A model generated the notes under the pieces. That model was not told the DNA's origin and ran no database searches. It saw only the letters and a list, made by a program, of their open reading frames with translations. Positions 3,804-62,163 of a stretch of 64,000 nt of DNA are shown in pieces. Source of the DNA: a virus; IMG/VR virus record IMGVR_UViG_3300045971_000895, positions 128,001-192,000 of that record. The stretch is one strand, 5' to 3'. Made by a program: the position numbers and the translations under genes. The first letter of the stretch is position 1; each line of letters opens with the position of its first letter.

Positions 3804-4150
3804 TGTGTGATTCCTCTAAGAGCTTATGCCTACGGCTCCGAGTTCCTTTCTTTGCCCAAACGCTGCTTCATTCCTACGTCGAAGCGCATGTCGAGGGCAG
3901 AGAAGGTGGGCCGACCGACCATGATGCAGTCGTTCTTGGCCGCGTACATGCAGACGATGTTCCACGCCAGCATCCGGCTCTTTGGGGGAAGGGTGGACGC
4001 GAAATGGATGCGTATCGAGTACACTAGTGCGTTGACGCTCTTGTGAGTCTCGAGGGATGCTGGCGTTCCAGCGGCTCTCCCAAGAGAGTCAGTCACACTG
4101 GGGAGCCAAGATAGGGACGGCGGCAGCACGACCACAGGGTAGCAGGGAGA

Positions 4151-14176: not shown

Positions 14177-14662
14177 ATGGCCGGACCGAACTTCGAGCTC
14201 ATCACCGAGCTCCAGACCCTGACCCGCCGCGACTTCACCATCGCGGACAGCACCATCCTCGCCCCCACGGGCACACTCCCTCTCGTCGACGGCGAGTGGC
14301 TCGAGATCAACTCGAGCTACCAGCTGGCGCGCGGCGCGACGGGCGTCCAGTCGTACAGCCCCCTCACCTTCCCGGTGCACACCGAGCGCGGTCGGTACGA
14401 CACGCAGGCCATCGGCAAGGTCAACGTCCTGATGCTCGGCATGTACGAGGCCGAGACCCAGGTCATGGTCGCCTCGGGCATCACCCTGGGCGAGGGGCTG
14501 ATCGTGAACAGCCTCGCCTCCGGTGCCCACCTGGGCCGGCGCGGTCTCGTCGAGCAGGGCTCGGCGACGGCCACCACCCTGGTCGTGGGCTACGCGACCA
14601 AGCTGCCCGCCGCCAACGGTGGGAAGCTCCGCTTCGTCCACTTCGGGAACGCGCTGGTGTAG
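14177..14662 (+). CDS. hypothetical head protein (161 aa), possibly decoration/auxiliary capsid protein
   Basis: Lies immediately upstream of the capsid gene. AGGAGA RBS. Confidence 0.4.
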   Translation: MAGPNFELITELQTLTRRDFTIADSTILAPTGTLPLVDGEWLEINSSYQLARGATGVQSYSPLTFPVHTERGRYDTQAIGKVNVLMLGMYEAETQVMVASGITLGEGLIVNSLASGAHLGRRGLVEQGSATATTLVVGYATKLPAANGGKLRFVHFGNALV

Positions 14663-14698
14663 TTCGGCGCTCACACAGAAAGCACAGGAGACACAACC

Positions 14699-15820
14699 AT
14701 GAGCGCCACTGCCGTTCCAGCCAAGGTCCTCAACGACCTCTTCTTCGAGAAGATCGGGTCCACCGAGGGCAAGGACAAGATCGCCGAGTTCGGAGGCACC
14801 TACATCCGGGACCGCCTCCGTGAGGTCTCGTTCGCCCGCAAGATCATCCCGCCCACTCCCGTCCAGCGGAGCGAGCTCCAGCGCTCGGTGAACCACGACA
14901 CGCTCGTCAAGATCGTGGACATCGAGCCGAACTCGAAGGCCACCAGCCTGACCTTCCGCGGTCAGCCGACGGCTCGGTTCATCCGCGCCCCGCGCTTCGA
15001 GATCCCCTTCTTCACCATCTCCTCGGAGAAGTTCGAGAAGACGGAGCAGGAGCTCCTGGCGTACGAGATGCCCATCACCAAGATCATCGAGGAGAACTCG
15101 GTGAAGGACATCCAGGCGATCGAAGACCGCCAGTTCCTGATCTTCGTCGAGGCCTGCATCCAGGCGATGCAGCTCTCCGCCAACGGTGGCACCGCGACCT
15201 CCAACAAGGTCAACGGCGGCACCGCCGTGGTGTCGTCGGTCATCAAGGGCGCCGGCGCCGTCACCGGCAACGCGAACACCTTCACGGTGTACTCGCTCCA
15301 GAAGAACGACTTCGTCAAGCTGAAGCAGCTCCTGCACCGGCGCTTCCTCCGGTCGGAGCGGCTCCTGATGACGGAGCCGGACTACGACACCCTCTCGACC
15401 TGGACCATGACCGAGGTCTGGAACATCGCTGCCGAGACGGCGACCGAGGGCTGGAAGAGCAACACCGTGGTGGGCCTGAAGATCATCCGGACCATCAAGA
15501 CCAACATCCTGCGCGAGGGCAACGTGTACTGCTTCACGGCGCCCGAGTTCTTCGGCCGGTTCTACATCCTGAACCAGACGAAGTTCTACATCGACAAGAT
15601 CGCCAACCTCATCACCTGGCAGAGCTGGGAAGACATCGGGATGGGCTTCGGCAACGTCGCCGCGGTCACCAAGCTCGAGCTCTTCGGTGGTGGCGTGGTC
15701 CCCGGCGCCTCGCCGGACTCCGGCTACGCGGCCGTCCTGCCGATGGACGAGTCCGACCTGAACCCGGTCAACAACCTGGCCGACGCCGGGACGACCTACC
15801 CGCAGGTCGACCAGTTCTAA
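14699..15820 (+). CDS. major capsid protein
   Basis: 373 aa. Its size and position are right for a capsid protein. Followed by the strongest terminator in the window. No internal Cys-rich or low-complexity region. The assignment rests on context plus general HK97-like length and composition. Confidence 0.6.
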   Translation: MSATAVPAKVLNDLFFEKIGSTEGKDKIAEFGGTYIRDRLREVSFARKIIPPTPVQRSELQRSVNHDTLVKIVDIEPNSKATSLTFRGQPTARFIRAPRFEIPFFTISSEKFEKTEQELLAYEMPITKIIEENSVKDIQAIEDRQFLIFVEACIQAMQLSANGGTATSNKVNGGTAVVSSVIKGAGAVTGNANTFTVYSLQKNDFVKLKQLLHRRFLRSERLLMTEPDYDTLSTWTMTEVWNIAAETATEGWKSNTVVGLKIIRTIKTNILREGNVYCFTAPEFFGRFYILNQTKFYIDKIANLITWQSWEDIGMGFGNVAAVTKLELFGGGVVPGASPDSGYAAVLPMDESDLNPVNNLADAGTTYPQVDQF

Positions 15821-41096: not shown

Positions 41097-42824
41097 TTAG
41101 CTCCTCAGGTAGTTGGTGAAGGAGGTCCTCACGAGATCGGTCATCTCGAAGAAGAGGTCCTCCGGGTTGTCTCCTACTCGAACCCAGCGCTTCGGGCCCA
41201 GCATCCTGTCCGCCTCTGACGACGGCAGGGTGTTGCCCAGCAGCACGGTACTGACTCGGATGCGCCGGCGAGCGGCATCGACCACGTCTTGTCTTACCTG
41301 CTCGCGCAGGCCGATGTTCGACTGAGCCCCGATGGTCTGCGGATTCCCGTCCGAGACGATGAGCAGGTGCTTCATCCGCCCAGGCATCTGGGCCAGCTGC
41401 CGTGCGGCGACAGGGACAGCGATGTGGAGCGGAGTGAGCCCCCACGCCTCGGGGATGGTCTTCTTCGGCAGGTAGCCCTTGGTCGGGTCCTCGAAGTCGA
41501 TGATGACCGTCCCTCCGGTGCTGTCTCCAGAGAAGCCCCAGACCTTCACATTCGAGAAGGGGAACTTGGTGGCCACCGCGGCCACTTTCGCCGCCCTCGA
41601 CACCGTCATCCAGAGCTGCTGCATGGAGCCGCTCATGTCGAGCAGGATGATGAGGTCGAAGCCCTTGGCTGGGCGGTCCTCGAGGAAGAACTCCATGTCG
41701 CCCTGACCGTGGAGGAACTCGATGTAGCGCTCGGGGTCGAGGTGAGATCCGTCTTCGGCCCTCGCACGGGTGCGCTGGTCGATGAGCCGGATGAAGATGC
41801 GGCGCAACTCCGAGGCAAGCTTGGAGTCCCTCTCGCTCAGCCTGAACTCCTCAGCATCGTGGGCAGGAACGTGAACGAGCTTCGTCCTGTGCATCCCCTT
41901 CAGGAGGTCTTGGTCCGGAGGGATCTCTCGCAGTCGGGAGGAGAGCTTGCGGATGAGCGTCTGCACTTCCTCCGTGCCCAAGCTGATGAGCTGAGCGAGT
42001 GCGTCATCCGACTCGAGACCCATCGCAGTGCGTGCGACGTGCTTGGTCTTCCCCGTGTCCCTGTCGAGCGCTCGAGGGGACTCGGTGTCGAACAGCATGG
42101 CTGCTCCCCGAGACTGAAGCGCTGCCTTCTCGAGCTGAACGACTGCTCGCTCGTTGCTGTAGATCTTCCTCTTCGTCATCCTCTTCGCGCCGCCGGCCTG
42201 CGGCACGCCAGGCTCTTGTGGCACCTCCTCATCTGCGAGGAGGCCGATGACGTGGTCGAGGATGATGCGAGTGGCCACGAGCACGGTGGGGTAGCTGGCA
42301 CGCTTCACCAGCTCGAGCGCACGCAAGATGACGGGGTCGAAGCGGTCCCAGCTGCTGCCAGGGATCTCGGCCGCACCGATGCCGAGGGCGATGACCCTCA
42401 TGGTCAGGTTGCCTTTCGTCCCGTTGGCGAGGAGCCGCTCCCACCGAGTCTTCAGCTTCTCGGCGCTGCCCGGGTACACCATCTCGTGGAGAGAGTGCAC
42501 GCGAACATCGTCGATCGCGTTCGCCAGCATGTCGATGAAGTCCTCTTGGAGGGAGGTGGGGGAGAGCCCAGTCAGCTTCCGCTCCTCGAGGTAGAGCTTC
42601 ACGAAGTGGGCTCGAGCATGGAGGTCGGTGCCGAAGAGGATGTGCGTCCACTCATGCTTGTGGATGACGTCCACCTCCTGGTCTTCGATGGGGACGGAGA
42701 GGTAGGTCTCGGTGTCCGTCCGACCAGGAGGATCAGCGGCGAAGAGGGTGATCTCCTTCCCCGTGAGGCCGCAGAAGATCTTGTGGACCTTCCGCACGAT
42801 GTCGACCCGGTCCTTGTGGTTCAT
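41097..42824 (-). CDS. VWA-domain protein (CobT-like partner of MoxR ATPase)
   Basis: MIDAS motif 'DLIILLDMSGSM' in the C-terminal half. 4-nt overlap with the upstream ATPase gene. Confidence 0.7.
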   Translation of the reverse strand: MNHKDRVDIVRKVHKIFCGLTGKEITLFAADPPGRTDTETYLSVPIEDQEVDVIHKHEWTHILFGTDLHARAHFVKLYLEERKLTGLSPTSLQEDFIDMLANAIDDVRVHSLHEMVYPGSAEKLKTRWERLLANGTKGNLTMRVIALGIGAAEIPGSSWDRFDPVILRALELVKRASYPTVLVATRIILDHVIGLLADEEVPQEPGVPQAGGAKRMTKRKIYSNERAVVQLEKAALQSRGAAMLFDTESPRALDRDTGKTKHVARTAMGLESDDALAQLISLGTEEVQTLIRKLSSRLREIPPDQDLLKGMHRTKLVHVPAHDAEEFRLSERDSKLASELRRIFIRLIDQRTRARAEDGSHLDPERYIEFLHGQGDMEFFLEDRPAKGFDLIILLDMSGSMQQLWMTVSRAAKVAAVATKFPFSNVKVWGFSGDSTGGTVIIDFEDPTKGYLPKKTIPEAWGLTPLHIAVPVAARQLAQMPGRMKHLLIVSDGNPQTIGAQSNIGLREQVRQDVVDAARRRIRVSTVLLGNTLPSSEADRMLGPKRWVRVGDNPEDLFFEMTDLVRTSFTNYLRS

Positions 42825-43777
42825 GTGAGCCCCGCTCGAGTGGCGAGGTCGGCATGGGTCCCGTTCTTGGTGATGTCCTGGATGCGCTCGATGACGAGCT
42901 TCCGGTCCTCGTCGCCAAACTTCTGGCAGAGGAGGAACATCATGTCGAACCAGCCGACGCGGGGGAGCAGGTTGATGAGCTCCACCAGGTCGCGGGTGGA
43001 GAGGGAGTAGCTGGTGGCTCCCTGCCTGGTCTGGTTGGCGATGTTCACCAGCATCTCCAGGCCCTGCTGCTGGATGGGGTCTCCCATCGAGCCCGTCTTC
43101 CCGTAGCCGGTCATCTCCATGAGGATCTCCTTCTCGGCCTCGGGAGGCGGGTAGGGGATGTCGATGCAGGTGAAGCGGCTCCTCAGGTCATCGTTCAGCT
43201 CGTTGGTTCCGCCGTAGACGGTGGGGTTCTGCGTGGCGATGACCCAGAGCTTGCAGCCCTCCCGGAGCTCGAGGCGCGTGGAGAGCTCTGGGATCTCCAG
43301 CTTGCGGCGGAAGTCGGTGAAGCTGTTCACCAGCTTCTGCTGCTGGTTGGGCAGCGAGTTCAGCTCCTCGAGCACGAGCATGGCGAAGCCGCACTCGTTG
43401 GCCACCTTGATGGCGTTGGCGACGGTGCCGAGGATGAAGGGGGTCTCCCCGCTCTTGGCGACGAAGCCTCCCTTGAAGTGCCGCTCCCTCGTCTCTTCCG
43501 AGCAGTCCATGGAGAGGTAGGGGATGCCGAGGGTCTCGGCCATGTACGACGCCAGCAGGGACTTCCCCGTCCCCTTGGGCCCGTTGAGCAGGAGGTTGGG
43601 AGGATCCCAGGTACCCGAACCGGTAGGCACCTGACTCATCTTTGTGAGGAAAGGTATGAGCTCGAAGACATCGACGTACTTCAAGCCCTTCCTCAAGACG
43701 AGAGAGGCGGGTACCATGTACCTGACCTCGACGCCGTTGATGCGGAGGATGCCCTCTCCGACTGCTTCAAGTGTCAT
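42821..43777 (-). CDS. MoxR/CobS-like AAA+ ATPase
   Basis: Walker A 'LLLNGPKGTGKS' and Walker B 'MLVLEELN'. Size and architecture match phage CobS-like proteins. Confidence 0.75.
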   Translation of the reverse strand: MTLEAVGEGILRINGVEVRYMVPASLVLRKGLKYVDVFELIPFLTKMSQVPTGSGTWDPPNLLLNGPKGTGKSLLASYMAETLGIPYLSMDCSEETRERHFKGGFVAKSGETPFILGTVANAIKVANECGFAMLVLEELNSLPNQQQKLVNSFTDFRRKLEIPELSTRLELREGCKLWVIATQNPTVYGGTNELNDDLRSRFTCIDIPYPPPEAEKEILMEMTGYGKTGSMGDPIQQQGLEMLVNIANQTRQGATSYSLSTRDLVELINLLPRVGWFDMMFLLCQKFGDEDRKLVIERIQDITKNGTHADLATRAGLT

Positions 43778-43845
43778 GTGTCCTCTGGTAGTGTAGGTTG
43801 TTGGCCTTCAAGGTCTTATCCCTTCAACGCGGACCCTTTGGACCG

Positions 43846-45597: not shown

Positions 45598-48500
45598 ATG
45601 GCCCTTCGCAGGTTCCTGTTCCAGAACCTCGGTGCGGGCTCTGGCTTCTTCGATCAGAACCAGGACTCGGACGAGGTACAGGTAGCGAGGGTCACCATCG
45701 TCGCCGGCGTAGGCGGCGTTGGTCTCGCTCTTGGCCTGACCGACATCTCTGGGGCTCGGGACATCAGCGCCCGGTTCGTCTCGTTCACCACCGGCGTCAC
45801 CGGTGGCGTGGCGATCGACGCCGGCGGCCTGCGCATCACCAACCTGGCGCTCGTTCCCACCGGGCCCAGCGAAGCCGTCTCGATGCAGTTCGTCGTGGAC
45901 GCCATCGCTGGGATGACCGGCGTTGGCGCCACAGGAGCCACAGGCCCTGCTGGCCAGCAGGGACCAACCGGTGCCGCGATCACCGGGGCCACTGGCCCGC
46001 AGGGCTCGCCCGGGCCCACAGGGCAGCAAGGTCTTCAGGGCGTCACTGGAGCAACTGGGCCTGTCGGTCCGCAAGGCCCTACCGGAGCGGCGATCACAGG
46101 GGTCGCTGGGCCGCAAGGGGCAACAGGTGTCACGGGAGCCCGAGGTGCTGACGGCGTCACTGGGGCGACGGGCCCTCAAGGGCCGCAGGGGGTCACGGGA
46201 TTCACCGGTCCCCTTGGTCCTCAAGGCGTCGATGGCGTCACTGGTCCGCAGGGTCCGACTGGAGCTGGCAGCTATCCCGGTGGCACGACGGGGCAGCTGC
46301 AATACTTCAACGCCGGGTCCTTCGGTGGCGCTACCAACATTACTTTTGAGAACGGGTCGCTTGTTCTCAAAGCAGATGGTGTCCACCCAATACTGGTCAT
46401 CAAGAACTCTTCTGGCGTAACCGTTGGTGGATGGGATGCCTCCGCAGGGCATCTATCCACCACCTTCCTAGATCCTGTTGCATCGCTGCGTACAGGCCAT
46501 GATGGCTACTTCGAGCAGGGAGGTTTCTTCTTCGACTCTTCCCTTACGGCGACTACCGGAATAGCTGCTGACGTTCTTGTTCTGGATACGGCAGCTGCGC
46601 TTAGAACCAAGAAGGCTACGACCGCTCTTGAGATCCCCTTGGGGGTTGCGGGGCAGTTCAACGCGCCTACTTGGATGCTCACTAGCGGTAAGGCTAGCGT
46701 TACTGCGGATACTGCCGCAGTGGCCATTGGTGACCGTATCGTGATGTCCCCCACGCTGATTGGGGCCGTCACTCCCGACAACACATGGGACCTTGCGAAG
46801 CCCATGCTTGGGTACGCGCTGTCGAGCAAGGCAGGAGGGTCCAGCGGGGCAATCACTATATGGCTGGCCCAGCAAGCGGGGATACCGTCTCTCAACTACT
46901 CCGGCACGCTTGTCTCAACAAACAACATCACCGCACCAACGTTCCTCGGCAACGTGACGGGTACCGGGCCATCTTCCCTGGGGCCTTTGAGTGTCACTGG
47001 AGCAGCTACCGCAGATCAGCCTACGTTTGGCCCCGAGCTGCTCAGCGCAACAGGCTGGACTTCGGTCGGATGGACTGGCGGGCCTTGGCCTACTGGGTTC
47101 GCACACACCGCCGGCAACACTTCCGTTCTCTCCAACACCTTGGCTGCCGTCATCGGCACCAAGTACCACATCACGTTTGCCGTTACGGGGCGTACGGTCG
47201 GAACGTTCGACTTGCAGTTCGGTGGCCAGACCATCCCACTGCTGTTCTCTTCCACCACGGTCAACCTCGGGGACGCGAACGGCTACGGCAGCGTGGACCC
47301 TACCGCCACGACGACCGGTGGCCTGACGATCACTCCGACAACGGACTTCAACGGGACGATCACCCTCTCGATCAAAGCCATCACGGCCGTCTCTACTCCT
47401 GTGTTCAAGCTCCTCTCCAGCACGTGGGGAGTCCAAGTAGAGGTCCGCGTCAACACGGTAGAGAGCGGCACTAACATCGCAAGCATGTTCATCGGCCAGG
47501 ACTCTGGCTCCTATGCGACTACCGGGTTCAACAATACGTTCCTCGGTAACGCTGCGGGCATGAACCTGACGTCAGGCCATGACAACTGCGGCCAAGGCAA
47601 CCTGGCCCTCAAGGCTCTCACGGTTGGGTTCGGCAACTCGGCCTTTGGGTCTTACGCTCTTCGGCAGATCATCGCGTCCAAGTACAACACGGCGATGGGC
47701 ACCGGGGCTTTGCGGTTGCTCACCTCGGGCTACGGCAACACGGGCGTTGGGTTCAGTGCCCTCTACTCCAACACCACGAGCATCTACAGCTCTGCCCTCG
47801 GCGTAAGTTCCGGACGCTACTTGGTTGATGGCATCACCGAGCTTACTGACTCTTCCTACTCGGTGTTCCTGGGCTACAAGTCGATGTCGTTTGCCCAGGC
47901 ACAGACCAACGAGATCGTCATCGGAGCCTTGGCTCTTGGCAACGGCTCCAACACGGCCACGCTCGGTAACGACAGCGTCACCAAGACCTACCTCAAGGGC
48001 GTGCTCACGAGCTTGGTTGTTGATAGCGCCGCAGCGGTGGCTCATGCCATCAACTCCCCAGCCTACAGCACGGCCGGCGCCAAGCTCCTCTCGATCCGCA
48101 ACAACGGCGTCGAGAAGTTCTACGTCGACAAAGATGGCAACGCCTACTCGAACGGAGTGCTGCTCGGTGCCACGGGCCCAGCTGGAGCGACAGGAGCTCA
48201 GGGCGTTACTGGAGCACAAGGGATCCAAGGTGTCACCGGTGCAACTGGTCCGACTGGTCCACAAGGAGCCACTGGGCCGTTGGGTGCCACTGGCGTTCAA
48301 GGCATCCAGGGAGTCACTGGGTCGACAGGCCCTGCCGGCGCGCAAGGTGCCACGGGTCTTCAAGGCATTCAGGGTGTCACGGGAGCGACCGGGCCTACGG
48401 GCCCGAAGGGCGACACCGGCGCTGCGATCACTGGAGCGCAGGGCGCAACTGGTGTGCAGGGTCCGCAGGGCATCACCGGCGTCACAGGACCGATGGGACC

Positions 48501-51500
48501 TGGGAGTCCCTCCGCTGGCCCTCAGGGCAGCCCAGGCGTCACTGGTGCGACGGGTGCTCAGGGTCCACAAGGAGTAACGGGGGCAACAGGTCCCACTGGG
48601 CCTCAGGGCCCAACTGGCGCCGCCATCACTGGCGCTCAGGGTCTTCCCGGTGTCACCGGTGCTACGGGCACAACCGGAGCGCGAGGCGCGACCGGTGTCG
48701 ATGGTGTCACCGGCGCCACAGGTGTTCGCGGTGCCACTGGTGTGGACGGTGTGACCGGCGCGACGGGTCCTACGGGGGCTCGAGGTGCGACAGGCATCGA
48801 CGGAGTCACCGGGGCTACTGGCCCTCGTGGTGCAACCGGAGTCGATGGAGTCACAGGAGTCACGGGACCAACCGGCGCACGAGGTGCGACTGGCGTTCAA
48901 GGAGTCACTGGGGCTACTGGTCCTCAAGGGGCCACAGGCGTCGACGGCGTTACCGGATCAACGGGACCTCGAGGTGCGACCGGAGTGACTGGTGCGACAG
49001 GTCCTGTCGGTCCTCAAGGGCCTACGGGAGCGGCCATCACCGGCGCCATCGGGCCGCAGGGCCCGACAGGTGTGACCGGTGCTCGCGGCGCTGACGGCGT
49101 CACTGGCGCAACAGGTCCGACAGGGCCACAGGGTGTGCAGGGTCCTACTGGTGCGGCCATCACAGGAGCGCAAGGAATCCCCGGCACGACCGGAGCTACT
49201 GGCACAACTGGTGCGAGAGGCGCGACTGGCGTCGACGGTGTCACTGGTGCCACGGGGCCGACCGGACCGGTCGGTGCTCAGGGCGTGACGGGAGCTACCG
49301 GCCCAACAGGCGCACGGGGAGCGACGGGTGTTGATGGTGTGACGGGCTCGACAGGTCCTCGTGGCGCCACCGGCGTTGACGGAGTGACCGGAGCAACAGG
49401 CCCCACTGGTGCACGCGGGGCGACAGGCGTCGATGGAGTCACTGGGGTCACAGGCCCAACCGGTGCCCGCGGTGCAACGGGTATCACCGGTGCCACTGGT
49501 CCCATCGGCCCGCAGGGTGTGACTGGTGCGACTGGCCCGGTTGGCCCACAGGGGGCGACGGGCGCCACTGGTCCTGTTGGTCCGCAAGGCCCCACTGGTG
49601 CGGCGATCACTGGGGCTCAAGGCATCCAAGGGCCAACGGGTGCTGCGATCACGGGTGCGGTTGGTCCGCAAGGTGTCACCGGCGCTACTGGTGTGACTGG
49701 TGCTCGAGGTGCTGATGGCGTGACTGGTGTCACCGGCCCCGCCGGCGCCAGGGGCGCGACAGGCGTTGATGGTGTCACCGGCGTTACAGGTCCGACCGGA
49801 GCGCAAGGTGCCACTGGGCCTGGTGCGAACCCTGGCGGCATCACCGGCCAGATCCAGTTCAACGAAGGCCCGACCTTCAACGGCGACGTCGGCCTCACCT
49901 ACGACAAGGTGTCGAAGGCTCTCTTCGTCAGCACCATTGACGCTCTCCCCAACAACCCTCTCAGCCTGTTTGGGAGTGCGACGGCCGGAGCGACGAGCGG
50001 CGCCATCATCCTCACGCAGACCCCGGGCCTTACGGTCCCCGGGTCCAGGCTCTTCAGCCTCCGCAACAACAGCGCTGAGAGGTTCTACGTAGACGAAAGC
50101 GGCAGAACCTACGCAGCCGGCATGGAGGTATTCAAAACCAACGACGTGGTGATGAACACCAACCCGTTCGGTGGACGCAAGCTCTACCTCAACAGCATCA
50201 ACAATGCGCTCTTCCGTGCCGAGAGCCGCTGGGCCGTTACTGGGGCTCGGTACCTGACGAGCGACGACAGCCTTCTGTCTGCCATCTCGCAGGTGGAGCT
50301 CGCCACGCTCTTCGATGGCAACTACGAGGCGGTACTCAACATCCCCGCCGGCCAGTACATCATCGTCAACATCAACTTCGCCACCGAGCTCGGCTCCGGT
50401 GGCGTCTACCCCGGGTACCCGTACGGCAACTTCCTCGTCTCGCACTACTACACTGACTACTCTGCCGGGGGCACGGTCAGCGCGTACTCAACCTACGTGC
50501 CCCATGGCGTTGGGTGGCACTCGCAGACGTTCTACGACTACCTCCGAGTCGGCACCACCAACCTGATCCTTCAGGCGCGGAACGACGTCTACGCGATCTC
50601 TCAGCTGGAGTTCAAGTTCTCGGCGCTGCCAGGCACTGCGGCCAAAATCACCCAGATTGACTGGAACCTCGATCGCCCTGGCGGTAACGAGATGCCGCTG
50701 TTGGATAAGTTCAAGGCCAACATCCTGTACTCTCACTTGTCGTTTGAGAGCGGGCTTTCGACGACTGCTGTGATTTCGGTTGCCGGTGAGGGCCGCTTTG
50801 CTGCGCTGTACGGCGTCACTGGGTCGTTGCCGCTGCACGGTCAGGCCGTAGACGGAAGCTCTGCTGTTGGGGTGAGCGTCAACAACACGACTGCGCTCAC
50901 CACGGCTGGTGCGAAGCTCTTGTCTGTCCGCAACAACTACGTCGAGAAGTTCTACGTCGACAAGGATGGCAACTTCGGAGGCCCGAACGGCGTCTTCCGC
51001 GTTACGGAGACGCGCACTCTCCCGATCACTGTCGGGGACTATGTTTCGCTCGGCTCCGTTCAGGTCCCAAGCGGCGCACACCAGCTGATTGTTCAGCTTA
51101 CCGTGTCGAGCTCCGGGTTCTCCGTCGCGAAGCTCTACTTCGTCACTGCTGCCTACGGCCAGACGGGGAACGTTTGGAAGACTGTCGATCCCGTCGACGA
51201 CACGGGCCCGTTCTCGAACGACTTCGCGTTGGAGGTCAACACAGTCAACGCCTCACTCTTCCTGCGGGTGCGCCGTACTTCGGGAGCCGTTGCTGGAGTC
51301 GTCACGGCAGTCATGACGATCGGCGACTCCAACGTCGCTAGTTGGTTTACCGACTCCTCGACCGGGGGCACTGGGTCGGTGGCGACGGGCTACTTCGCCG
51401 GCGTTGCCTCCAAGATCCTGCGGAGCGGTCTTGCGGACTCAGGTTCGGCGGTCGCTGCGCTCATCGACACCACGGCGACGTTCACCACAGCTGGTGCGAA

Positions 51501-54500
51501 GCTCCTCTCCATCAGGAACGCGGGCATCGAGAAGGCCTACGTCGACAAGGACGGCAACTACTGGTCAAACGGCCAACAGATCAGCGTCACTGGCCCCACT
51601 GGCCCTCAGGGCGCCACCGGGGTCAACGGCGTCACTGGAGCAACTGGCCCAACAGGGCCTCAAGGCATCCAAGGCGTCACGGGAGTCACCGGTCCAACTG
51701 GTGCGCGTGGTGCTACCGGAGTTGATGGCGTCACCGGAGTGACTGGGCCTACCGGTGCACGAGGCGCCACTGGTGTTGATGGTGTCACGGGAGCAACCGG
51801 GCCAACAGGTGCTCGCGGCGCAACTGGTGTCACCGGAGCAACTGGCCCTGTTGGGCCGCAAGGAGTGACGGGCGCTACTGGCCCCGTCGGACCGCAGGGA
51901 CCTACCGGGGCAGCCATCACTGGAGCACAGGGCATCCAAGGTCCTACCGGAGCCGCCATCACTGGTGCTGTCGGGCCCCAAGGGCCTACCGGCGTCACGG
52001 GTGCGCGCGGTGCGGATGGTGTGACCGGGGCCACTGGGCCGACAGGTCCGGTTGGCGCACAAGGTGCGACAGGGTGGACAGGCCCCACCGGGGCGAGGGG
52101 TGCCACCGGTGTGGACGGCGTCACCGGCGTCACGGGCCCGACTGGCGCCCGCGGCGCCACCGGGGTCACCGGTGCCCAAGGCATCCAGGGCATCCAAGGC
52201 GTCACCGGGTCGACCGGCCCGCAGGGCGGGCAGGGCCTCCAGGGCGTCACTGGGGCCACGGGACCGACCGGACCCCAGGGCGCGCAAGGGGTGACAGGCG
52301 CAACGGGCCCCACGGGCCCGCAGGGCGCTCAGGGAGTGACCGGCTGGACCGGCCCGACGGGCGCCAGGGGCGCCACGGGCGTGGACGGTGTCACAGGTGT
52401 GACCGGACCCACCGGGGCCCGTGGTGCGACCGGCGTGACGGGTGCGCAGGGCATCCAAGGGAACCCCGGTGTCACCGGTGCGACAGGTCCTCAAGGCGCT
52501 CAGGGACCGACTGGTGCAGCCATCACTGGGCCGCAGGGTGTCACAGGAGCCACAGGGCCTGTCGGTTCACAGGGCCCGACAGGAGCTCTCGGCCCCACGG
52601 GAGCAGGCAGCTTCCCTGGAGGCGCGAACACTCAGGTCCAGTTCAACAACTCCGGCGCGTTCGGTGGATCTGCGAGCCTGTTCTGGAACGGCACCTCTCT
52701 CGTCGTAGGCACCTCTGCGGCAGGCTCCAGCCAGCTCTCAAGCGCCAACGCCTTCCAAGAGTACTGGTCTACGGAAGTGTACCCTCGCGTGTGGCTCTCC
52801 CGCGATGCAGGGTCGAGCGGCGTGGCCGGTCTGGCGTTCGGCATTGGCTCCGTTGCCCCGGACAGCAAGATCCATCGAGCCACCAACGGTGCTGGCCTCG
52901 CCTTGATGGGCGGCAACGTCGGCATCGGCACGACGACCCCTGGGTACAAGCTCGATGTGGCGGGTAACGCCAACATCAGCAACGGATCTTACTACTACGC
53001 TGGAGGCTTGCCGCTTTCGGCCGGCGCTGGTGCAGAAAACTACCTGTTCACCAGAACCAACGGCCTGCTGATCCGCAACGCAGGTGAGACCGCGACCCTT
53101 GGTGTCATCGACAACAGCGGTAATGCGTCGTTCATAGGGACGCTCTCCACAGGAGGCAACGCAGTCATTCATGCCGGTAACATCGGCACCCAGAGCGTCG
53201 CTAACGCAAACACTGTCGACTCGGTCCATTCGTCATCGCTCCGTCGTCTGGACTCGGACGGCTTCTTCTCTACCGGGACCTACCCAGGCAACCTGAACGG
53301 CTCTGACTACCAGTACACGTTCCAGTCTGCGCCACAGTCGATGATCGGGGATGCCTTCGCCTGGAACCCTCCCACGTCCTACGAGATATGGAATGGGTCT
53401 GCGTGGGTGTCCGGTGGCGCCGTACCAGTCGAGGTGTTCCGGGGAGACCCCGCCCAGAACTGGGGCAACGTATCCATCCCCTACGGGACGCAGAAGGTCC
53501 GCTTCACGTGGAACAACTTCGAGTACTTCTACTGGAACGCTCTCCAGATGGCCCACTCCACCAATGGGCACACCTTTGTCGTGAAGGTGCAGCAGAGCGA
53601 CGCAGCGGGAACGACGTTCACTGACACGGTCACCTCGGCCGCCATCGGCTCTTGGCCCGGGTATACGATCCTCCCTCACACGGGCGTTTCGCACCCCTCC
53701 AACACACTTCACGCTCGGATCGAGATCACCCCGACGTGGAATGGTACCTACCCTTCCAACACCATCGGCATCGGGCACATCGGCCTGCTGGGCGCGTATG
53801 GCCCGATGAGGAAGCTCTACACTTGGGACGCAGCTCGAAACATCTATCTCCAATCAAGCCTTGTCATCGACCCCACCGGCACCAGCGGCATCTACATCAA
53901 CTCCGCTAGCATCCGGCGGTCAGGGAACTCGTACCTCGATATCTCTGCCCCAGACGCTGGAGGACGCCTTAGACTTCGTGGCGCTTCAGGCGTTGGCATA
54001 TACAACGGCACAAACGACTACGATGTAATCCACGCGGGCAACATCGCGTCGCAGACCGTCGCCAGTGCCACCAACGTGACGTCAGTCGCTGACACTACGA
54101 CGACCAGTGGATTCTTACTCTTCCACCCCGGGAGCGGGACCTACCAGCCCAGACTGAGCGCGGCGCTATACTACGACGCTACTACTGGGTCTCTGTTCTC
54201 TACGAAGTTCTTCGGGAACGCTTCCGGGCTTACGGGTTCGGCGGGCAGTCTAACTGCCGGCGCGACCACGAATGTAACCGCTGGTGGGTCCGTCACCACT
54301 ACCACCATAAGCGCCCTGGTCGCGGGTGGAGCCTTAGACCCGTACGGCGCAGTCGCCATCGCGGCACCCAACGACGCTACCAGCCACTCCTACATGTCGT
54401 TCACTAGGAACGCGCAGGTAGGTATTGGGTTTGGTATCACGAGCTCAAATGAGTACTGGGTTGGGCCAGCCACGGCGGGCTTCGCCGGGGTGATGAGTGG

Positions 54501-55209
54501 TACGCCCTGGCTGCGTCTGAACGGCACTACTGCCCAGATCAACGGCAATAACATCATTCACGCCGGAAACATCGCCTCTCAGACCGCGGGTACCGCTACC
54601 AACGCCGTCAACGTTGGGGTCACCGACGACACGACGACCAACGCTACTCACTACATAACGTTCGTGAACACGGCCTCGGGCAACCGTGCGATCGAGGTCA
54701 GCAGCAGCAAGCTGACGTACAACCCGTCGACCGGTGGTCTCACCACCGCCGGCAACATCACCGGCAGCGACATCTATGCCATCCGTGCGAGCAATACGGC
54801 TTCAGGCGTCATCTACTTCGGCAACAGCGGCGCCCAGTACCTCTTCTACAACGGTGCTGGCGCATACAGCCTGACAAGCGGAACTCTGACCGTTGGTGGC
54901 ATCGTCTACGCCACCGACTTCTCGGCATCTTCCGACTACAGGCTGAAGGACAACATCGCCACCATCCCCAACGCGCTGCGCCGTGTTCTTGGGATGCGCG
55001 GAGTGAACTTCACACGCGCTGACGACGAGAGTAACCGTTTGCACATGGGCGTCATCGCGCAAGAGATGGAAGAGATCGCACCCGAGGTCGTCAGCACCGA
55101 CGAGCATGGTATGAAGTCCGTCAGCTACACAGGGCTGGTGGGCATCCTGATCGAAGCGGTCAAGGAACTTCAAACCAAGGTCGAGGCGCTCCAAGCGCAG
55201 AAGGTGTGA
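45598..55209 (+). CDS. giant collagen-like tail fibre (3203 aa) with C-terminal peptidase S74 intramolecular-chaperone domain
   Basis: Three Gly-X-Y segments (about 110, 550 and 340 aa) separated by beta-rich modules. The C-terminus '[55 protein letters not shown]...[17 protein letters not shown]' matches the auto-cleaving chaperone domain of endosialidase-type fibres. Confidence 0.82.
48170..49830 (+). repeat. collagen-like GXY coding repeat (9-nt periodicity, 'GgtGcgACnGGn' units)
   Basis: Hundreds of near-identical '[13 protein letters not shown]' triplets. Shorter copies at 45920..46270 and 51590..52610. Confidence 0.85.
51590..52610 (+). repeat. collagen-like GXY coding repeat (third segment)
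   Basis: Same unit as above. Prone to recombination and length variation. Confidence 0.85.
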
Positions 55210-55210
55210 C

Positions 55211-56338
55211 ATGAGCGGCAAGCGCGAGTTCCACATGGACTTGAACTTGACCAACCAGTGCAACCTTCGCTGCTCCTACTGCGTTGAGGCTGGGCTGTTC
55301 ACCTCCAAGACCTGCGAGGAGATGCTCCCTCGCTTCTACGCTTGGATCGACCGGTTCATCGGCTCCCAGTACTTCAAGGAGCGCTACGACGAGCTCCACA
55401 TCGCACTGTGGGGCGGAGAGCCGACGCTCGAGTGGCGAACCATCATCGAGTTGGTGCGGCGCTACCTCGGAGACAACCGGGTCGCGTTCTTCCTGTACAC
55501 GAACGGCTACAACCACCCCAAGGGTCTTCAAGACCTTCTGGTGGACGCCACCAACAAGCACCGAGAGCAGCCCGACAAGTACCCAGCCTTCCCCATCCAG
55601 ATCTCGTACGACGGCATGCCCCTACAAGACATGTTCCGCAAGACGGTCGGAGGCAAGCCGTCTTCGGAGCGCGTCATCGAGACCATCCGGTGGGCGCAGG
55701 CCAAGGGATTGGACTTCAGCCTCAAGGCCACGATCACCGTGGCGTCATTGAAGCACCTCTACGCAGCCTGGCATGACATCAACATCCTTGGCCGAGGCGA
55801 GCTCACTTACTTCCCCACACTCGACTACTACAACGCGGTGATCAGCGACGATACGGCTGTCCTCGACACCAGCATCGAGGAGATGAAGACCTGCATGAAG
55901 ATGATCGCCGCCGACACGCTCAGGGCTCGAGCGGCAGGGAAGCAGGTGGCGCACTTCAGGTGGTTCGACTCTGCGAAGGCCAGCTGCTCGGCGGGACAGA
56001 ACCTGTTCAGCGTGGACCTCGATGGTGTGGTGTACGCCTGTCACACCGCCCCCTACTCCGAGAAGAAGGCCGACCATGTCGTTGGGGCTCTGGAGGACGA
56101 CTTCTCGATCTTCGACGTATCTGCTGAGAAGCATCGCGGCCTCCGTCCGCACCAGTGCTCTGGCTGCGAGGCGGTCTTCTGCGTGGTGTGCAGCGTGTCG
56201 AAGTATCGGATGTCGGACAAGGACAACTACCTCGACCGGTGGATGGACTACACCAACGACGATGAGTCCTGCCGCATCTACCGAGAGATGGGCAAAGTCA
56301 CTCGTGCGTTCCTTCAGCTCAAGGAGGAGATCAAGTGA
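55211..56338 (+). CDS. radical SAM enzyme with C-terminal SPASM/twitch-like Cys cluster (peptide/protein-modifying maturase)
   Basis: 'CNLRCSYC' is CxxxCxxC 18 residues from the N-terminus. The C-terminal cluster is 'YACH...QCSGCEAVFCVVCSV...ESC'. The start is 2 nt after the fibre stop. Confidence 0.8.
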   Translation: MSGKREFHMDLNLTNQCNLRCSYCVEAGLFTSKTCEEMLPRFYAWIDRFIGSQYFKERYDELHIALWGGEPTLEWRTIIELVRRYLGDNRVAFFLYTNGYNHPKGLQDLLVDATNKHREQPDKYPAFPIQISYDGMPLQDMFRKTVGGKPSSERVIETIRWAQAKGLDFSLKATITVASLKHLYAAWHDINILGRGELTYFPTLDYYNAVISDDTAVLDTSIEEMKTCMKMIAADTLRARAAGKQVAHFRWFDSAKASCSAGQNLFSVDLDGVVYACHTAPYSEKKADHVVGALEDDFSIFDVSAEKHRGLRPHQCSGCEAVFCVVCSVSKYRMSDKDNYLDRWMDYTNDDESCRIYREMGKVTRAFLQLKEEIK

Positions 56339-57003: not shown

Positions 57004-57678
57004 ATGGCGATCATCCCATCGTTGCCGCCCATCGTCCTCAGAGGCTCGACCAGCATCGCCACCAATGCGGTGAGCGTGAACATCTACGGCACGCCAACTA
57101 ACCTGACCCTCACCGCGACCATCGTTCGTACGCTCTTCGCCAAGCTGACTGGGACGATCAATCTCTTGGATGGAAGGGGTAAGTGCTACTCCAACTGCCT
57201 GTGCAACGGCGATTGCGGCTGCGACGCCAACTGCGGCTGCGACGCCAACCTGTGCGGCTGCGACGCGTTCTGCCCGGCTCCTGATGTCCCACTGCGTATG
57301 GCGGATGGGACCGAGAAGCTCGCTGGCGACATCGTGGTCGGAGACCTGGTGGTGGCTTGGGATGAGCACGCAGGAGAGTTCTCTACTCGCAAGGTCATCC
57401 ACGCATCACTCCACTCCAACCTCCGAATGCTCCTCGAGCTCAACAACGGGAAGTCCGGAGAGTTCGCAGCCAACCACAGGTTCCTCACGCAGAAGGGCCG
57501 TTGGGTCGAGCTTCAAGATCTCCATGTTGGTGAGAGGCTCTCGACGGGGCTGCTGGTCACCAAGACGGCGCTCACCTGCATCGGCCCCGTCGTGTCCATC
57601 ACCGTCGAGGACCTGCACACCTACGTCACCCTCGGCGTCATCTCTCACAACGTCAAGAACTGTCCGCCAGGAGTCTAG
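57004..57678 (+). CDS. Cys-rich (CxC-repeat) peptide fused to Hint/intein-like (BIL-type) autoprocessing domain
   Basis: Residues ~60-90 are 'CYSNCLCNGDCGCDANCGCDANLCGCDAFC'. Hint block A is 'CPAPDVPLRMADGTEKLAGDIVVGDLVV'. Block B is 'ANHRFLTQKGRWVELQDLHVGERL' (compare 'TANHRFLT' in the DnaB mini-intein). The C-terminal block is 'VEDLHTYVTLGVISHN', followed by 'VKNCPPGV' with no Cys/Ser/Thr at +1. Confidence 0.75.
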   Translation: MAIIPSLPPIVLRGSTSIATNAVSVNIYGTPTNLTLTATIVRTLFAKLTGTINLLDGRGKCYSNCLCNGDCGCDANCGCDANLCGCDAFCPAPDVPLRMADGTEKLAGDIVVGDLVVAWDEHAGEFSTRKVIHASLHSNLRMLLELNNGKSGEFAANHRFLTQKGRWVELQDLHVGERLSTGLLVTKTALTCIGPVVSITVEDLHTYVTLGVISHNVKNCPPGV

Positions 57679-58773: not shown

Positions 58774-58867
58774 TCGAGCCTCCTTTCAGAGGTTGAGTTC
58801 TTACCTTACGGTGAGTGATGGTGAGTGCACAGATTGCAGTTGCGTACCATGTGCGTGGTACTTGAAG

Positions 58868-59262
58868 TGGACCTGGAGGGAGTCGAACCCTCGTCCGGAA
58901 AGCCTTGCTTCAAGGCACTACGAGCGTAGCCCTGTAGACCTGGGCAGGTTGCAGCTGTTGCATCGACCTCTGTCCGCGGCGCCTCCCTCGATGCCAGGAG
59001 AGTGGACCCATTTCCTTCACATCCCACAACCGCGGTGTCCCTCGTGTGGTTGCGCCTATCCAGCTACCCGAGAGGCACTCTCGCTGGTAGACGGCTGAGC
59101 TCTCGTGGTCTCAGCAACATGGTGCCGCTAGGCTGCTGCGGCGGCCATGTTGATCATGGGCTCGTTGGCACATGAACGTGGTCTGCTTGGTAACGGGGCC
59201 TGCTGACCAACCCCGGCTCGCTCCTTGATCTGGGTACCCTCCGTCGAAACCGGTTCAGGCCC
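58868..59262 (-). ncRNA. ssrA: tmRNA (ssrA), one-piece, about 395 nt
   Basis: On the minus strand the 5' end is 'GGGCCTGAACCGGTTTCGACGGAGGG' (compare E. coli 'GGGGCUGAUUCUGGAUUCGACGGG'). The 3' end is 'GGACGAGGGTTCGACTCCCTCCAGGTCCA'. Acceptor stem GGGCCUG/CAGGUCC has a G3-U wobble. Candidate tag ORF 'GCCAACGAGCCC...GCCTAG' encodes ANEPMINMAAAAA*. Confidence 0.65.
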
Positions 59263-59451
59263 GTGAAGCCCTGAGCCAGCCCCAAGGGGCCTTGAACCTG
59301 TAGGTCGTTCGACTCGCTGGTAGGCCGCAGTCGATGAGTATGTTCACGCCTACAGAGCAAGGGCCCCTGGCACCGGCCCAGGGATGAAGCATCCTACACG
59401 ACTAGGCGGATGGGGGGTCCTCTTGCTCCGCCTCTTGCGTGGTACCCGACC

Positions 59452-60054: not shown

Positions 60055-60137
60055 CGGTCTGTGTCCCCACTTTGTGTGCGTGACGGCTGACAATCAGCCG
60101 CACAACACCTTATCCCCCACGATGGAATCTTTTGGAT

Positions 60138-60210: not shown

Positions 60211-60684
60211 CTACGCCTGCGCCATCTTCTGCGTGGCCTTCTCCGCCTCCAGCTGGAACTGGTTGGAGTCGGCCGCCTTCTTCACGTAGCTTGCGAGCTC
60301 CCACGGCGCGATGCCGAGCTCAATCACCGACTCGAAGGTGATCTCGCGGTAGGTATCCTTACCCAAACCGAGATCTTCGAGCGCAGTCTCGAACGCCGAA
60401 GACATGACGGCGTGCGGCCTCCACTGGGCTCCGAAGATGAACTCGTCTTCGCCGTTGAGGCCGAGCACGACGATCCTCGCGTGCACCAAGGACTCCGCGC
60501 CGTCGATGCAGCGCCGGTTGTCCAGCCCGATAGAGCACTTGAAGATCTCCGCCGGGGGCTTCTTCATTGAGAGCAGCAGGGTGAGGAGAGGCCGAAGGCC
60601 GCGAAGTGCGACTCTCGGCAGGGACTCCTGGTAGTTGCCGATGAAGTGGTCACACTCCTTCACGATCTCTTCGTTCTTCGTCAT
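60211..60684 (-). CDS. hypothetical protein (157 aa)
   Basis: Start 'MTKNEEIVKECDHF' with GGAGGTGG RBS. Confidence 0.45.
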   Translation of the reverse strand: MTKNEEIVKECDHFIGNYQESLPRVALRGLRPLLTLLLSMKKPPAEIFKCSIGLDNRRCIDGAESLVHARIVVLGLNGEDEFIFGAQWRPHAVMSSAFETALEDLGLGKDTYREITFESVIELGIAPWELASYVKKAADSNQFQLEAEKATQKMAQA

Positions 60685-61163
60685 GACCACCTCCGAGTCT
60701 TCGGGTTGAGCACCAAAGTCGAGTCCCCTCTGCTTCTGGTGATGGTCTGCCCCTTCACCTCTCGCTTCATACGACGCGAGCGGATGACGGCGCGAATGAC
60801 CCACACCAACACCATCCCCAACAGCACGTACCCCGTCATCCGAACCTCCAGGCTATGGTTGTCTCTGCTCTCTTCTTATGCCTCCACGCTCCGACCTTTG
60901 GGAGGCACTCGCACGATTGGTACGATGAAACATTACCCTCAAACGTGCACGGTGCAAGGGGTTTGCACGATACCCCCTCCCACCCGTCAAGCAACGAATG
61001 TACAGGGCTGTCCTGCAACTCCGGGCAACCACGAGAGGTATGGAGATTAGCCGCCTCCCGGCGGCCTACTCGAAGCGCCTCTCAAGTTCTCATCTGGAAG
61101 CGAGGTGCAACTAACACCTCTCCCAGATGGGAACTGAGCGGACTCTAGAGAGCATCACGGTCA

Positions 61164-62132
61164 GTGCAACAAGCAGTGAACTTCACCGCTACATCCTTAT
61201 GCCCAAATCGCACTCGTACTTGCTACCACATCCACCGCACTCTTCATGCTCCCCACCGCAGACTCAGGAGAGTAGCGTGGAGGTACGTGACCACCTACCC
61301 AGTACCTCCAGGCACTTCCAGGCGCGTTCCGCGTTACGTGACGTTGCTTCTTTGTTGGTTGGGGGTCGCGATATGTGGAGGGCTGGATGGTTGGCTCGAC
61401 ATGGCCTTCCACTACAACTTCACACCAACACCGATCTACCTAATTCCCATCTCGGTGGCAGCGTGGCTTGGAGGAATCCCTCTTGGCCTTCTCGTCGCTG
61501 CTCCTGCCTTGGCACTCGAGGTGTGGTTCAGTGTCGACGCAGTCAAGGTGCACCACTCCAACGGTGTAGTCATCACAGAGGCACTCTCGCTACTCATCGC
61601 CGCAGAGATGCTGACGGGTGTGCTCATCATCTCGAGACTGCGCGGCTACGTTCGCAAGTACCACCACTTCGCTTCGGTGGACGAGCTCACGGAGTGCCTC
61701 AACGCCAGAGCATTCAAGCACGAGTGTGAGATCTCCATCGAGCGCCTGAAGCGCCACAGCAACACGCACCTCTCAGTGATGTACATCGACGTGGATGACT
61801 TCAAGCTCGTGAACGACGAGAAGGGTCACAAGCATGGCGATGAAGCGCTCAAGATACTCGGCCAAGCACTTCGAGACTCGGTGCGCGTGGTGGATGTGGT
61901 TGGAAGAGTGGGAGGAGATGAGTTCGCCATTCTCTTGCCAGAGGCTAGTGAGAGCGATCTCCCATGTATCATCGAGCGCATCAAAGCTGCACTCGTGCAG
62001 ATGCAGTTCCCCACCACCATCAGCATCGGCTACGTGACCTACCCGCCCGGTGTGCCGAAGGATCTCGACGAGGTCTTCCACACGGCCGACCGGCGCATGT
62101 ACGAAGCCAAGAAGGCACGCAAGAAGAGGTAA
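61164..62132 (+). CDS. membrane-anchored GGDEF diguanylate cyclase
   Basis: 'RVGGDEFAILLP' active-site motif and 'MYIDVDDFKLVNDEKGHKHGD'. Hydrophobic N-terminal segments. The true start is probably downstream, around 61338..61400. A hairpin follows at 62137..62160. Confidence 0.68.
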   Translation: MQQAVNFTATSLCPNRTRTCYHIHRTLHAPHRRLRRVAWRYVTTYPVPPGTSRRVPRYVTLLLCWLGVAICGGLDGWLDMAFHYNFTPTPIYLIPISVAAWLGGIPLGLLVAAPALALEVWFSVDAVKVHHSNGVVITEALSLLIAAEMLTGVLIISRLRGYVRKYHHFASVDELTECLNARAFKHECEISIERLKRHSNTHLSVMYIDVDDFKLVNDEKGHKHGDEALKILGQALRDSVRVVDVVGRVGGDEFAILLPEASESDLPCIIERIKAALVQMQFPTTISIGYVTYPPGVPKDLDEVFHTADRRMYEAKKARKKR

Positions 62133-62163
62133 AACACAGGGGCCTGTACAAGCGCCCCTGGTG

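Follow-up and report, generated by a model that had tools for sequence, protein, structure and literature searches.

The cyclase locus

Near the right end of a 64,000-nucleotide stretch of viral DNA (positions 128,001 to 192,000 of IMG/VR record IMGVR_UViG_3300045971_000895, hereafter called the window) lies a gene for a predicted membrane-anchored diguanylate cyclase, which would produce the signalling nucleotide cyclic di-GMP (c-di-GMP), and directly before it a conserved element of 447 bp in which no gene can be recognised. An earlier note, made from the letters of the DNA, had pointed to positions 60805-62132 as a membrane GGDEF protein behind a low-GC noncoding region of ~500 bp, and had read the site either as a phage-borne cyclase or as the boundary of a host island. 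The locus, in window coordinates, consists of the following features.

61287-62132, plus strand: diguanylate cyclase gene, 281 amino acids (aa), GTG start (Pfam GGDEF profile, E 1.8e-37 for the GTG reading)
60840-61286, no strand assigned: conserved gene-free element, 447 bp (conservation, fold z-scores and compensatory pairs; no Rfam match)
60681-60839, minus strand: 52-aa open reading frame (ORF) with one hydrophobic helix and a basic tail, first gene of a leftward unit (own GGAGG before the ATG; 69% identical in the relative L003)
62137-62160, no strand assigned: hairpin between the cyclase stop codon and the convergent minus-strand gene (direct reading; followed by TGTTTTA on the minus strand)

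Five lineages with the cyclase gene were available for comparison, with cyclase identities of 100, 80, 79, 61, and 58%; contigs L001 and L002 represent this phage, L003 is a relative, and L004-L007 are short contigs showing the immediate neighbours only. The 52-aa ORF is separately called only in L001-L003 and L006. The longest ORF through the site runs from 61164 to 62132 on the plus strand, and a public call (P0001) starts at ATG 61401. We place the start at GTG 61287, because the 38 residues encoded before 61401 are conserved in all five lineages and align with helix 1 of bacterial homologues, because GGAGG stands 3 nt upstream, and because residues 16-41 form a confident helix in the AlphaFold model; the ORF start at 61164 was rejected in its favour, as was ATG 61401, which leaves out the conserved 38 residues. 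The boundaries given in the earlier note have to be moved, with the gene starting at 61287 and the 52-aa ORF covering 60681-60839. The region before the gene is noncoding and low in GC, but it measures 447 bp and occupies 60840-61286. It had also been called the longest noncoding stretch, which holds in the sense of the longest stretch without a recognisable gene; strictly, the gap at 58774-59451 is longer (678 bp) but houses a transfer-messenger RNA (tmRNA) gene. The visibly lower GC content is real, if modest, at 0.564 against 0.634 for the window, which places the element in the lowest 1.1% of 447-bp windows. This composition also covers the cyclase gene (GC 0.577; GC at third codon positions, GC3, 0.70, compared with mostly 0.75-0.95 in other genes of the window), and element and gene together form the window's lowest-GC 1.3 kb.

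The cyclase gene is the only plus-strand gene between two minus-strand blocks. The hairpin that follows its stop codon is present in all five lineages, with stem sequences that differ in L003 and L004, and it resembles a terminator under structural selection, kept by compensatory change. A moron is an accessory gene transcribed independently of its neighbours; opposite orientation, a terminator of its own and atypical composition are among its marks, as is a promoter of its own, and the first three are found here. The best reading is that the cyclase is an insulated, moron-like gene.

The cyclase protein

The protein can be divided into two parts, with the active and inhibitory sites located in the second.

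61287-61670, plus strand: N-terminal membrane module, aa 1-128, four hydrophobic helices and a connecting helix, DUF4118-like (hydropathy, AlphaFold helices)
61671-62126, plus strand: GGDEF catalytic domain, aa 129-280 (Pfam profile positions 1-160 of 161 covered)
61911-61925, plus strand: active-site GGDEF, aa 209-213 (direct reading; invariant in alignments A1 and A5)
61884-61895, plus strand: inhibitory-site RVVD (RxxD), five residues before GGDEF (direct reading; R200 and D203 invariant in 63 homologues)

Both the literal GGDEF motif and the N-terminal hydrophobic helices reported from the first inspection were confirmed. In the longest ORF the catalytic domain scores 128.6 bits with Pfam PF00990 (E 2.5e-37; cut-off 23.8) and 126.5 bits with TIGR00254 (cut-off 37.4). 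A degenerate motif on careful alignment had been named as the finding that would undo the assignment, and the alignment of 63 homologues (A5) shows it intact, with G209, G210, D211, and E212 invariant and F213 nearly so. The other invariant positions are D132, R156, D168, D170, F172, K173, N176, D177, H181, R200, D203, R207, S246, G248, D268, Y272, and K275, while D185 is nearly invariant (at least 90%). We take D168, N176, D185, and K275 to be the equivalents of PleD D327, N335, D344, and K442, in which case the conserved set would cover, by comparison with PleD, the Asp that binds metal, the Asn and Asp that bind guanine, and the catalytic Lys, together with the RxxD inhibition site. The position that presumably specifies guanine is Asp (D185), as in c-di-GMP synthases, and not the Ser of variants that make cGAMP. 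An RxxD site five residues before GGDEF is typical of diguanylate cyclases, not obligatory.

Hydropathy of the GTG reading marks hydrophobic segments at aa 14-35, 50-83, and 91-118, and the AlphaFold model (pLDDT 90.7, pTM 0.77) places helices at 16-41, 48-89, and 93-130. Basic residues precede helix 1 and follow helix 4, from which a cytoplasmic position is predicted for the two termini and for the catalytic domain, and because the loops between the membrane helices are very short (3-10 residues), a periplasmic sensor is not expected. With the AlphaFold model as query, the 50 best PDB matches were all diguanylate cyclases or GGDEF-domain proteins, the top folds being ImcA (8wcn), WspR, PleD, DgcR, and others at E 1e-12 to 1e-9; sequence matches were obtained to 44 solved cyclases. 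The membrane module is called DUF4118-like, and not a member of that family, because its profile match falls under the cut-off; the full-length bacterial homologue P0012 passes DUF4118 at 35.7 bits. As far as sequence can go, the protein is supported as a phage-borne membrane-anchored diguanylate cyclase with its catalytic and inhibitory residues intact.

The upstream element

The element contains two promoter-like sites, three hairpins, and a pair of palindromes, listed here from right to left.

61196-61203, minus strand: distal promoter-like motif GGCATAAG (next minus-strand start codon 357 nt downstream)
61172-61190, minus strand: hairpin H1, immediately behind the distal promoter (5 pairs, of which 2 show two-sided changes; 96% of cells paired)
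61066-61146, no strand assigned: long imperfect hairpin H3 (inverted repeat I1; core arms 61085-61100 and 61120-61135)
61050-61065, no strand assigned: hairpin H4, GCCGCC-TCCC-GGCGGC (16 of 16 bases invariant in five lineages; none of its 6 pairs ever varies)
60945-60968, no strand assigned: palindromes GTGCAC and GTGCAA..TTGCAC (direct reading; partly conserved, one compensatory pair)
60875-60901, minus strand: proximal promoter-like site, GGCATAAG at 60875-60882 with CCAAAG at 60896-60901 (36 nt before the 52-aa ORF)

At the DNA level the element is 80, 84, 69, and 59% identical to its four relatives, compared with 78, 79, 64, and 62% for the cyclase coding DNA, and so is no less conserved than coding sequence, although flanking proteins are only 47-69% identical. 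Substitutions in its gap-free blocks show no 3-base periodicity (p 0.42-0.97); in the cyclase gene the variable columns at codon positions 1, 2, and 3 amount to 0.50, 0.36, and 0.75. We regard the element as real and under clear purifying selection, and treat it as non-coding; it has no place in any known family.

The part from 60884 to 61190 folds far better than shuffled sequence (z -5.3 on the minus strand, -5.7 on the plus strand). Furthermore, 20 base pairs are changed on both sides, compared with 8.4-8.7 in shuffles (none of 500 reaching 20) and 2-8 in slid controls, although these counts are inflated by deriving the structures from the same alignment of five sequences. H1 and H3 stand out as the clearest helices. 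Ten of the pairs changed on both sides lie in H3, across helices 6 and 7. At its tip, where GAGGTG (61102-61107) pairs with CACCTC (61115-61120), all three varying pairs are compensatory, the pairing GAGGTG/CACCTC being replaced by GGAGTG/CACTCC and GAGATG/CATCTC. H4 behaves differently and is under constraint at the level of sequence, because it is invariant whereas the terminator after the cyclase varies freely; on the minus strand its loop reads GGGA, a GNRA tetraloop, and this holds for the minus strand only.

Searches for a known counterpart gave no match. Within 60830-61300, on both strands, Rfam returned nothing at gathering score and no c-di-GMP-I or c-di-GMP-II riboswitch; at E up to 10 it returned microRNA-precursor models, which reflect the long hairpin, one Burkholderia sRNA, and one raiA, all far below gathering. 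A scan of the whole window at the gathering threshold yielded only the tmRNA. The covariance model of the element (R1) found orthologous copies only and none elsewhere in the window, k-mer and repeat searches found no further copy in the window, and pattern scans of viral, metagenome, and genome collections returned only the known lineages and chance matches in high-GC genomes, as confirmed by BLAST.

The palindromes mentioned in the earlier note are present as described (GTGCAC at 60945-60950, GTGCAA at 60952-60957, and TTGCAC at 60963-60968). On visual inspection the palindrome was ruled out as a sigma-54 promoter, because it lacks the -24 GG and is not kept in the relatives. Nor is there conservation of a 10-nt inverted repeat on either side of the element (60881-60890 with 61274-61283), which was taken as chance.

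Promoter-like motifs and direction of transcription

The 8-mer CTTATGCC, which reads GGCATAAG on the minus strand, occurs in four exact copies in the window, all with the same orientation, where 0.55 would be expected. If G is also accepted at position 3 (GG[C/G]ATAAG), there are six minus-strand sites (61203, 60882, 60116, 43822, 6561, and 3830), every one of them in gene-free DNA, and five of the six stand 17-55 nt before a minus-strand start codon, the sixth being the distal copy of the element. CCAAAG is often found 13 nt upstream, and the full arrangement CCAAAG-N13-GG[C/G]ATAAG, present at the proximal site, is seen again at 60116, at 43822, and ahead of minus-strand genes of the relatives. 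The motif is also present in L001, L003, L004, L006, and L007. The distal motif is kept in all five lineages, in L006 and L004 in the form GGTATAAG. From this recurrence and position we infer that GG[C/G]ATAAG is the phage's promoter for minus-strand units. It never stands before the plus-strand (structural) genes, which suggests two promoter classes in this phage.

Both copies within the element point left, away from the cyclase, and because of this the element is probably not simply the upstream region of the cyclase itself.

A tiny hydrophobic ORF resembling the 52-aa ORF seems to follow the promoter at 3830 as well (ATG at 3804). In L001, a 786-bp gene-free gap between divergent genes at 14374-15160 (~3 kb past the right end of the window) carries the promoter motif at its left edge and is longer than the 447-bp element.

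Phage context

On the evidence of its genes the window is phage DNA and not host DNA. Three products were identified with PHROGs: the large subunit of a terminase (4151-5965, E 9e-59), a protease for head maturation (9261-10979), and a major head protein encoded on the plus strand (14699-15820). The window also encodes a giant fibre-like ORF of 3203 aa (45598-55209, plus strand), whose matching product in public gene calls has Collagen and Peptidase_S74 domains; most of the remaining products have no Pfam match. The identical cyclase protein is on record in contigs of up to 198 kb, and the relative with the 79%-identical cyclase is a 153-kb contig listed whole as a viral genome in IMG/VR. Gene order is shared by the four long contigs with listed neighbours (L001, L002, L003, and the 19.8-kb P0005 contig): an SLT transglycosylase, a gap, a gene of the 200-aa class, a gene of the 157-aa class, a long gap, and the GGDEF gene, beyond which runs a series of small minus-strand genes. 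Phage genes extend at least 10 kb to either side of the cyclase site, and flanking proteins of the window and L003 are 47, 62, and 69% identical. At the DNA level, none of 50,697 phage records matched as a close relative. The 157-aa and 200-aa neighbours, used as protein queries, returned the same lineages only, and a PHROGs search for lifestyle genes on ten further genes was uninformative.

Of the two readings first offered, the phage-borne cyclase is supported, within the reach of sequence, by the terminase, head protease, major head protein, and fibre, by the IMG/VR viral relative, by the gene position shared among five lineages, and by the intact catalytic residues. The host island boundary was not, given phage genes on both sides and a nearby tmRNA that is itself phage-borne.

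58865-59262, minus strand: phage tmRNA gene, full length (Rfam RF00023, 100.2 bits)

ARAGORN misses this gene, and the tag read from the Rfam alignment is ANEPMINMAAAAA; its 3′ end is ...UCCACUU, with CCA not encoded. In L003 the syntenic orthologue scores 105 bits and is called by ARAGORN with the tag ANEPMFAQQLAAA. The first 84 nt of the window's tmRNA (58865-58948) are 79% identical to positions 46646-46729 of Myxococcus phage Mx1 (OR576727.2; L043 7001-7084), in a stretch that is unannotated and lies within a tRNA cluster. This suggests an unannotated tmRNA in Mx1, and it may be taken as a weak hint that the host is a myxobacterium.

Relatives of the cyclase

Bacterial proteins of 280-310 aa, which form a large family, can be aligned with the 281-aa protein from end to end at 30-39% identity. 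These small membrane cyclases, which combine a DUF4118-type module with GGDEF (P0012 and P0017 are examples), are covered to 88-100% and have the helix pattern and the catalytic and RxxD residues in common with the phage protein. The latter differs from them in that it ends ~10-20 residues sooner, in that its membrane module stays under the Pfam DUF4118 threshold, and in that it is carried by a phage, whereas P0017 and P0012 stand among housekeeping genes. A 4-residue insertion was considered as a phage-specific signature and ruled out, since bacterial members such as P0017 carry the same insertion. The solved cyclases PleD, WspR, and ImcA (8wcn, a membrane cyclase) share the GGDEF fold and motifs, and the alignment with ImcA extends over 284 columns and includes the helices before the domain. 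Unlike these, the phage protein possesses neither a receiver nor a periplasmic sensor domain, and its short loops leave no obvious ligand-binding part.

Phage-borne GGDEF proteins are already known, and the cyclase itself is not the first of its kind. Annotated examples come from Bacillus phage G (gp350), Bacillus phage SP-15, Bordetella phage CN1, Escherichia phage vB_EcoS-683R6, viral metagenome contigs, and uncultured phages, and a diguanylate cyclase gene has been reported on viral contigs (PMC11295528). The annotated phage GGDEF proteins are at most 38% identical to the cyclase described here, over the domain only, and none has the same genome context. The nearest proteins outside the clade, P0006 and P0007, are both found in phage-like contigs, P0007 in a contig of 210 kb where small ORFs are accompanied by HNH, Ro60, and HTH genes, and P0006 in a run of small ORFs adjoining a Laminin_G_3 protein like one in this window; with covariance model R1 the upstream element was absent from both loci. 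A neighbour-joining tree groups the seven phage-context proteins, a grouping that is weakly supported.

Proposed function of the locus

The explanation that we consider best overall, and hold with moderate confidence, is a phage membrane cyclase accompanied by a conserved control region that mostly serves the leftward genes. The four N-terminal helices would hold the cyclase in the inner membrane, with a long helix leading into the GGDEF domain; by analogy with solved cyclases, the enzyme would act as a dimer that makes c-di-GMP from two GTP, with product inhibition through the RxxD site. Expressed by the phage, the enzyme would raise c-di-GMP in the infected or lysogenic cell and push it to a sessile, matrix-producing state of low motility. 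The hairpin after the cyclase stop would end incoming leftward transcription, sparing the cyclase antisense read-through, and leftward transcription would restart from the promoter-like motifs of the element. The proximal copy would serve the 52-aa ORF and the genes beyond. The distal copy would yield a structured minus-strand RNA comprising H1, H3, and the GNRA-looped H4, either as a small RNA of ~150 nt ending at H4 or as a leader of ~320 nt that modulates read-through into the operon. The cyclase's own promoter should either lie within the 84 bp that separate the start codon from the distal motif or overlap the element; two conserved blocks, GTACTTGC (61216-61223) and TTCATGCTCCCCAC (61243-61256), are no more than candidates.

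With 357 nt free of ORFs behind it, the distal promoter would be expected to give a non-coding transcript, and the element probably gives rise to a minus-strand structured leader or small RNA. The motif recurs and the element is conserved as described; the transcript, its strand and its role are predictions. The suggestion in the earlier note that the low-GC region may encode a small RNA gains indirect support from conservation, compensatory pairs, and the orphan promoter, but the direction of the promoters, away from the cyclase, does not fit a region that is simply the upstream part of that gene. In its more specific form the proposal is tentative: the element may be an undescribed structured RNA family of ~150-320 nt on the minus strand (H1, H3, and H4), transcribed from a phage promoter divergent from the cyclase and acting either in cis, as an attenuator or antiterminator leader, or as a small RNA, and so coupling the leftward operon, towards the tmRNA, to the state of the infected cell. 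A comparable layout of promoter, conserved hairpins, and GC hairpin upstream of an operon is known from promoter-proximal structured phage RNAs and leaders, for example the put antitermination RNAs of phage HK022, and from phage small RNAs. The element, however, has no sequence or model match in Rfam, and its transcript, strand and function are predicted only.

Several observations weigh against this picture. The covariation alignment is small and not independent of the structures, the long hairpin holds G-U and A-C combinations in equal number (9 vs 9), so that no strand is favoured, and neither strand is ahead of the other in folding or covariation. Large parts of the element are invariant and not covarying, which fits protein-binding DNA as well as RNA, and the minus-strand sequence that follows H4, TAATCTCC, makes a poor U-run, so that termination there is uncertain. 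On the side of the cyclase, a scan for a sigma-70-like plus-strand promoter found none, the membrane module scores 12.3-14 bits with DUF4118 (PF13493; E 0.04-0.15, cut-off 28.4), and we infer the activity of the enzyme and the timing of its expression, together with dimerisation and the effect on the host.

A serious rival, though in our estimate a somewhat unlikely one, is that the element works only as DNA, as a divergent promoter region with operator sites for phage or host regulators and with palindromes that bind protein. The sameness of both strands in every structure test would then be natural, as would the two promoter-like motifs and the long invariant runs such as the 16 bases of H4, TGGTACGATGAAA, and GTCCTGC...TCCGGG. 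Yet H1, H3, and the tip of H3 stay paired through two-sided changes, the stems are long and imperfect, unlike typical operators, and the distal promoter would be expected to produce a non-coding transcript in any case; with five lineages, RNA structure is supported but not proven. We judge it unlikely that the element is instead a long plus-strand 5′ untranslated region of the cyclase mRNA, riboswitch-like or an attenuator leader. Its place directly before the gene, co-conserved in all five lineages, and the low GC common to both would suit such a leader, as would a plus-strand hairpin at 61275-61313 in which the cyclase Shine-Dalgarno sequence and start codon pair with codons 6-9 (-26 kcal/mol, z -2.9). 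That hairpin is present in the window and L007 but absent in L003, L006, and L004, and is given little weight for this reason; moreover, no plus-strand promoter-like site was found, both recognised motifs run in the opposite direction, neither c-di-GMP-I, c-di-GMP-II nor any other Rfam riboswitch matches at E up to 10, and the loop of the invariant H4 is of GNRA type only if read on the minus strand. Quite improbable, in our view, is a transcription-primed replication origin as in phage T4, where a promoter is combined with an unwinding element: a conserved promoter without a gene behind it, the window's lowest-GC DNA, and a site with the structural module on one side and small genes of early type, in a block, on the other recall such an origin, but DNA of 56% GC is not easily melted, no iterons were found, the GC skew has no clear turning point at the site, and no replication gene adjoins it. 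A hidden small protein gene, for which the plus-strand ORF 60925-61050 (41 codons) would be the candidate, is very improbable. The ATG and the first 41 codons are in frame and without indels in all five lineages, but the stop is not conserved, the frame staying open for at least 58 aa in all four relatives; there is no Shine-Dalgarno sequence, though genes here have strong ones, and variable sites are spread over the codon positions as 21/15/23 with no excess at position 3. The ORF was rejected as a gene, its open frames being a by-product of high GC and conservation.

Two further alternatives concern the gene and the site. The GGDEF protein might not be a c-di-GMP synthase but a degenerate receptor or the maker of another cyclic dinucleotide. 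We consider this rather improbable, because all residues for GTP binding and catalysis are present and because the position that gives guanine specificity is Asp (D185) and not the Ser of variants that make cGAMP; PADLOC defence models, moreover, found no match. What keeps the alternative in play is that many GGDEF proteins are inactive, that cyclase activity is here predicted from sequence, and that some GGDEF relatives act in phage-defence signalling, as reported in PMC12657218. As to the site, tmRNA genes are common integration sites, and one lies 1.6 kb away, so that the locus could be imagined as the edge of a prophage or host island with the tmRNA as integration target. This is barely credible: the tmRNA is full length with its tag, phage genes continue for at least 10 kb on either side, and no integrase was seen. 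The reading was rejected because the tmRNA belongs to the phage, being syntenic in the 153-kb viral contig (L003).

In many bacteria c-di-GMP decides between swimming and settling or biofilm formation. That five related large phages keep a cyclase at one position, and that its closest relatives occur in two further phage-like contigs, suggests that hijacking c-di-GMP repeatedly pays for large phages, and the benefits may include loss of motility-linked receptors, a block of superinfection, or a host held in a productive state. The cyclase gene is small and self-contained. If the element acts as RNA, it would add a class of phage regulatory RNA; if it acts at the DNA level, it would define the promoter architecture of an uncultivated phage group.

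Other features of the window and of related contigs

Some observations made along the way are recorded here. Directly after the 3203-aa fibre ORF stands a radical SAM protein (55211-56338, plus strand), for which a scan of viral contigs found nothing, and slightly beyond it a Hint/intein-like protein (57004-57678, plus strand), whose PT-HINT match of 24.6 bits falls just under threshold. A MoxR-type AAA ATPase (AAA_5) and a VWA/CoxE-like protein are paired at 41097-43777 on the minus strand behind one promoter-like motif. ARAGORN calls a 92-nt tRNA-Arg(TCT) at 15243-15334 (minus strand), inside the ORF of the major head protein; Rfam places no tRNA there, and the call is probably false. Finally, in the contig of P0007 (L038, 3968-7123), a Ro60/TROVE gene is followed by a gene-free gap of ~1.5 kb, in which Y-RNA-like or tRNA genes might lie.

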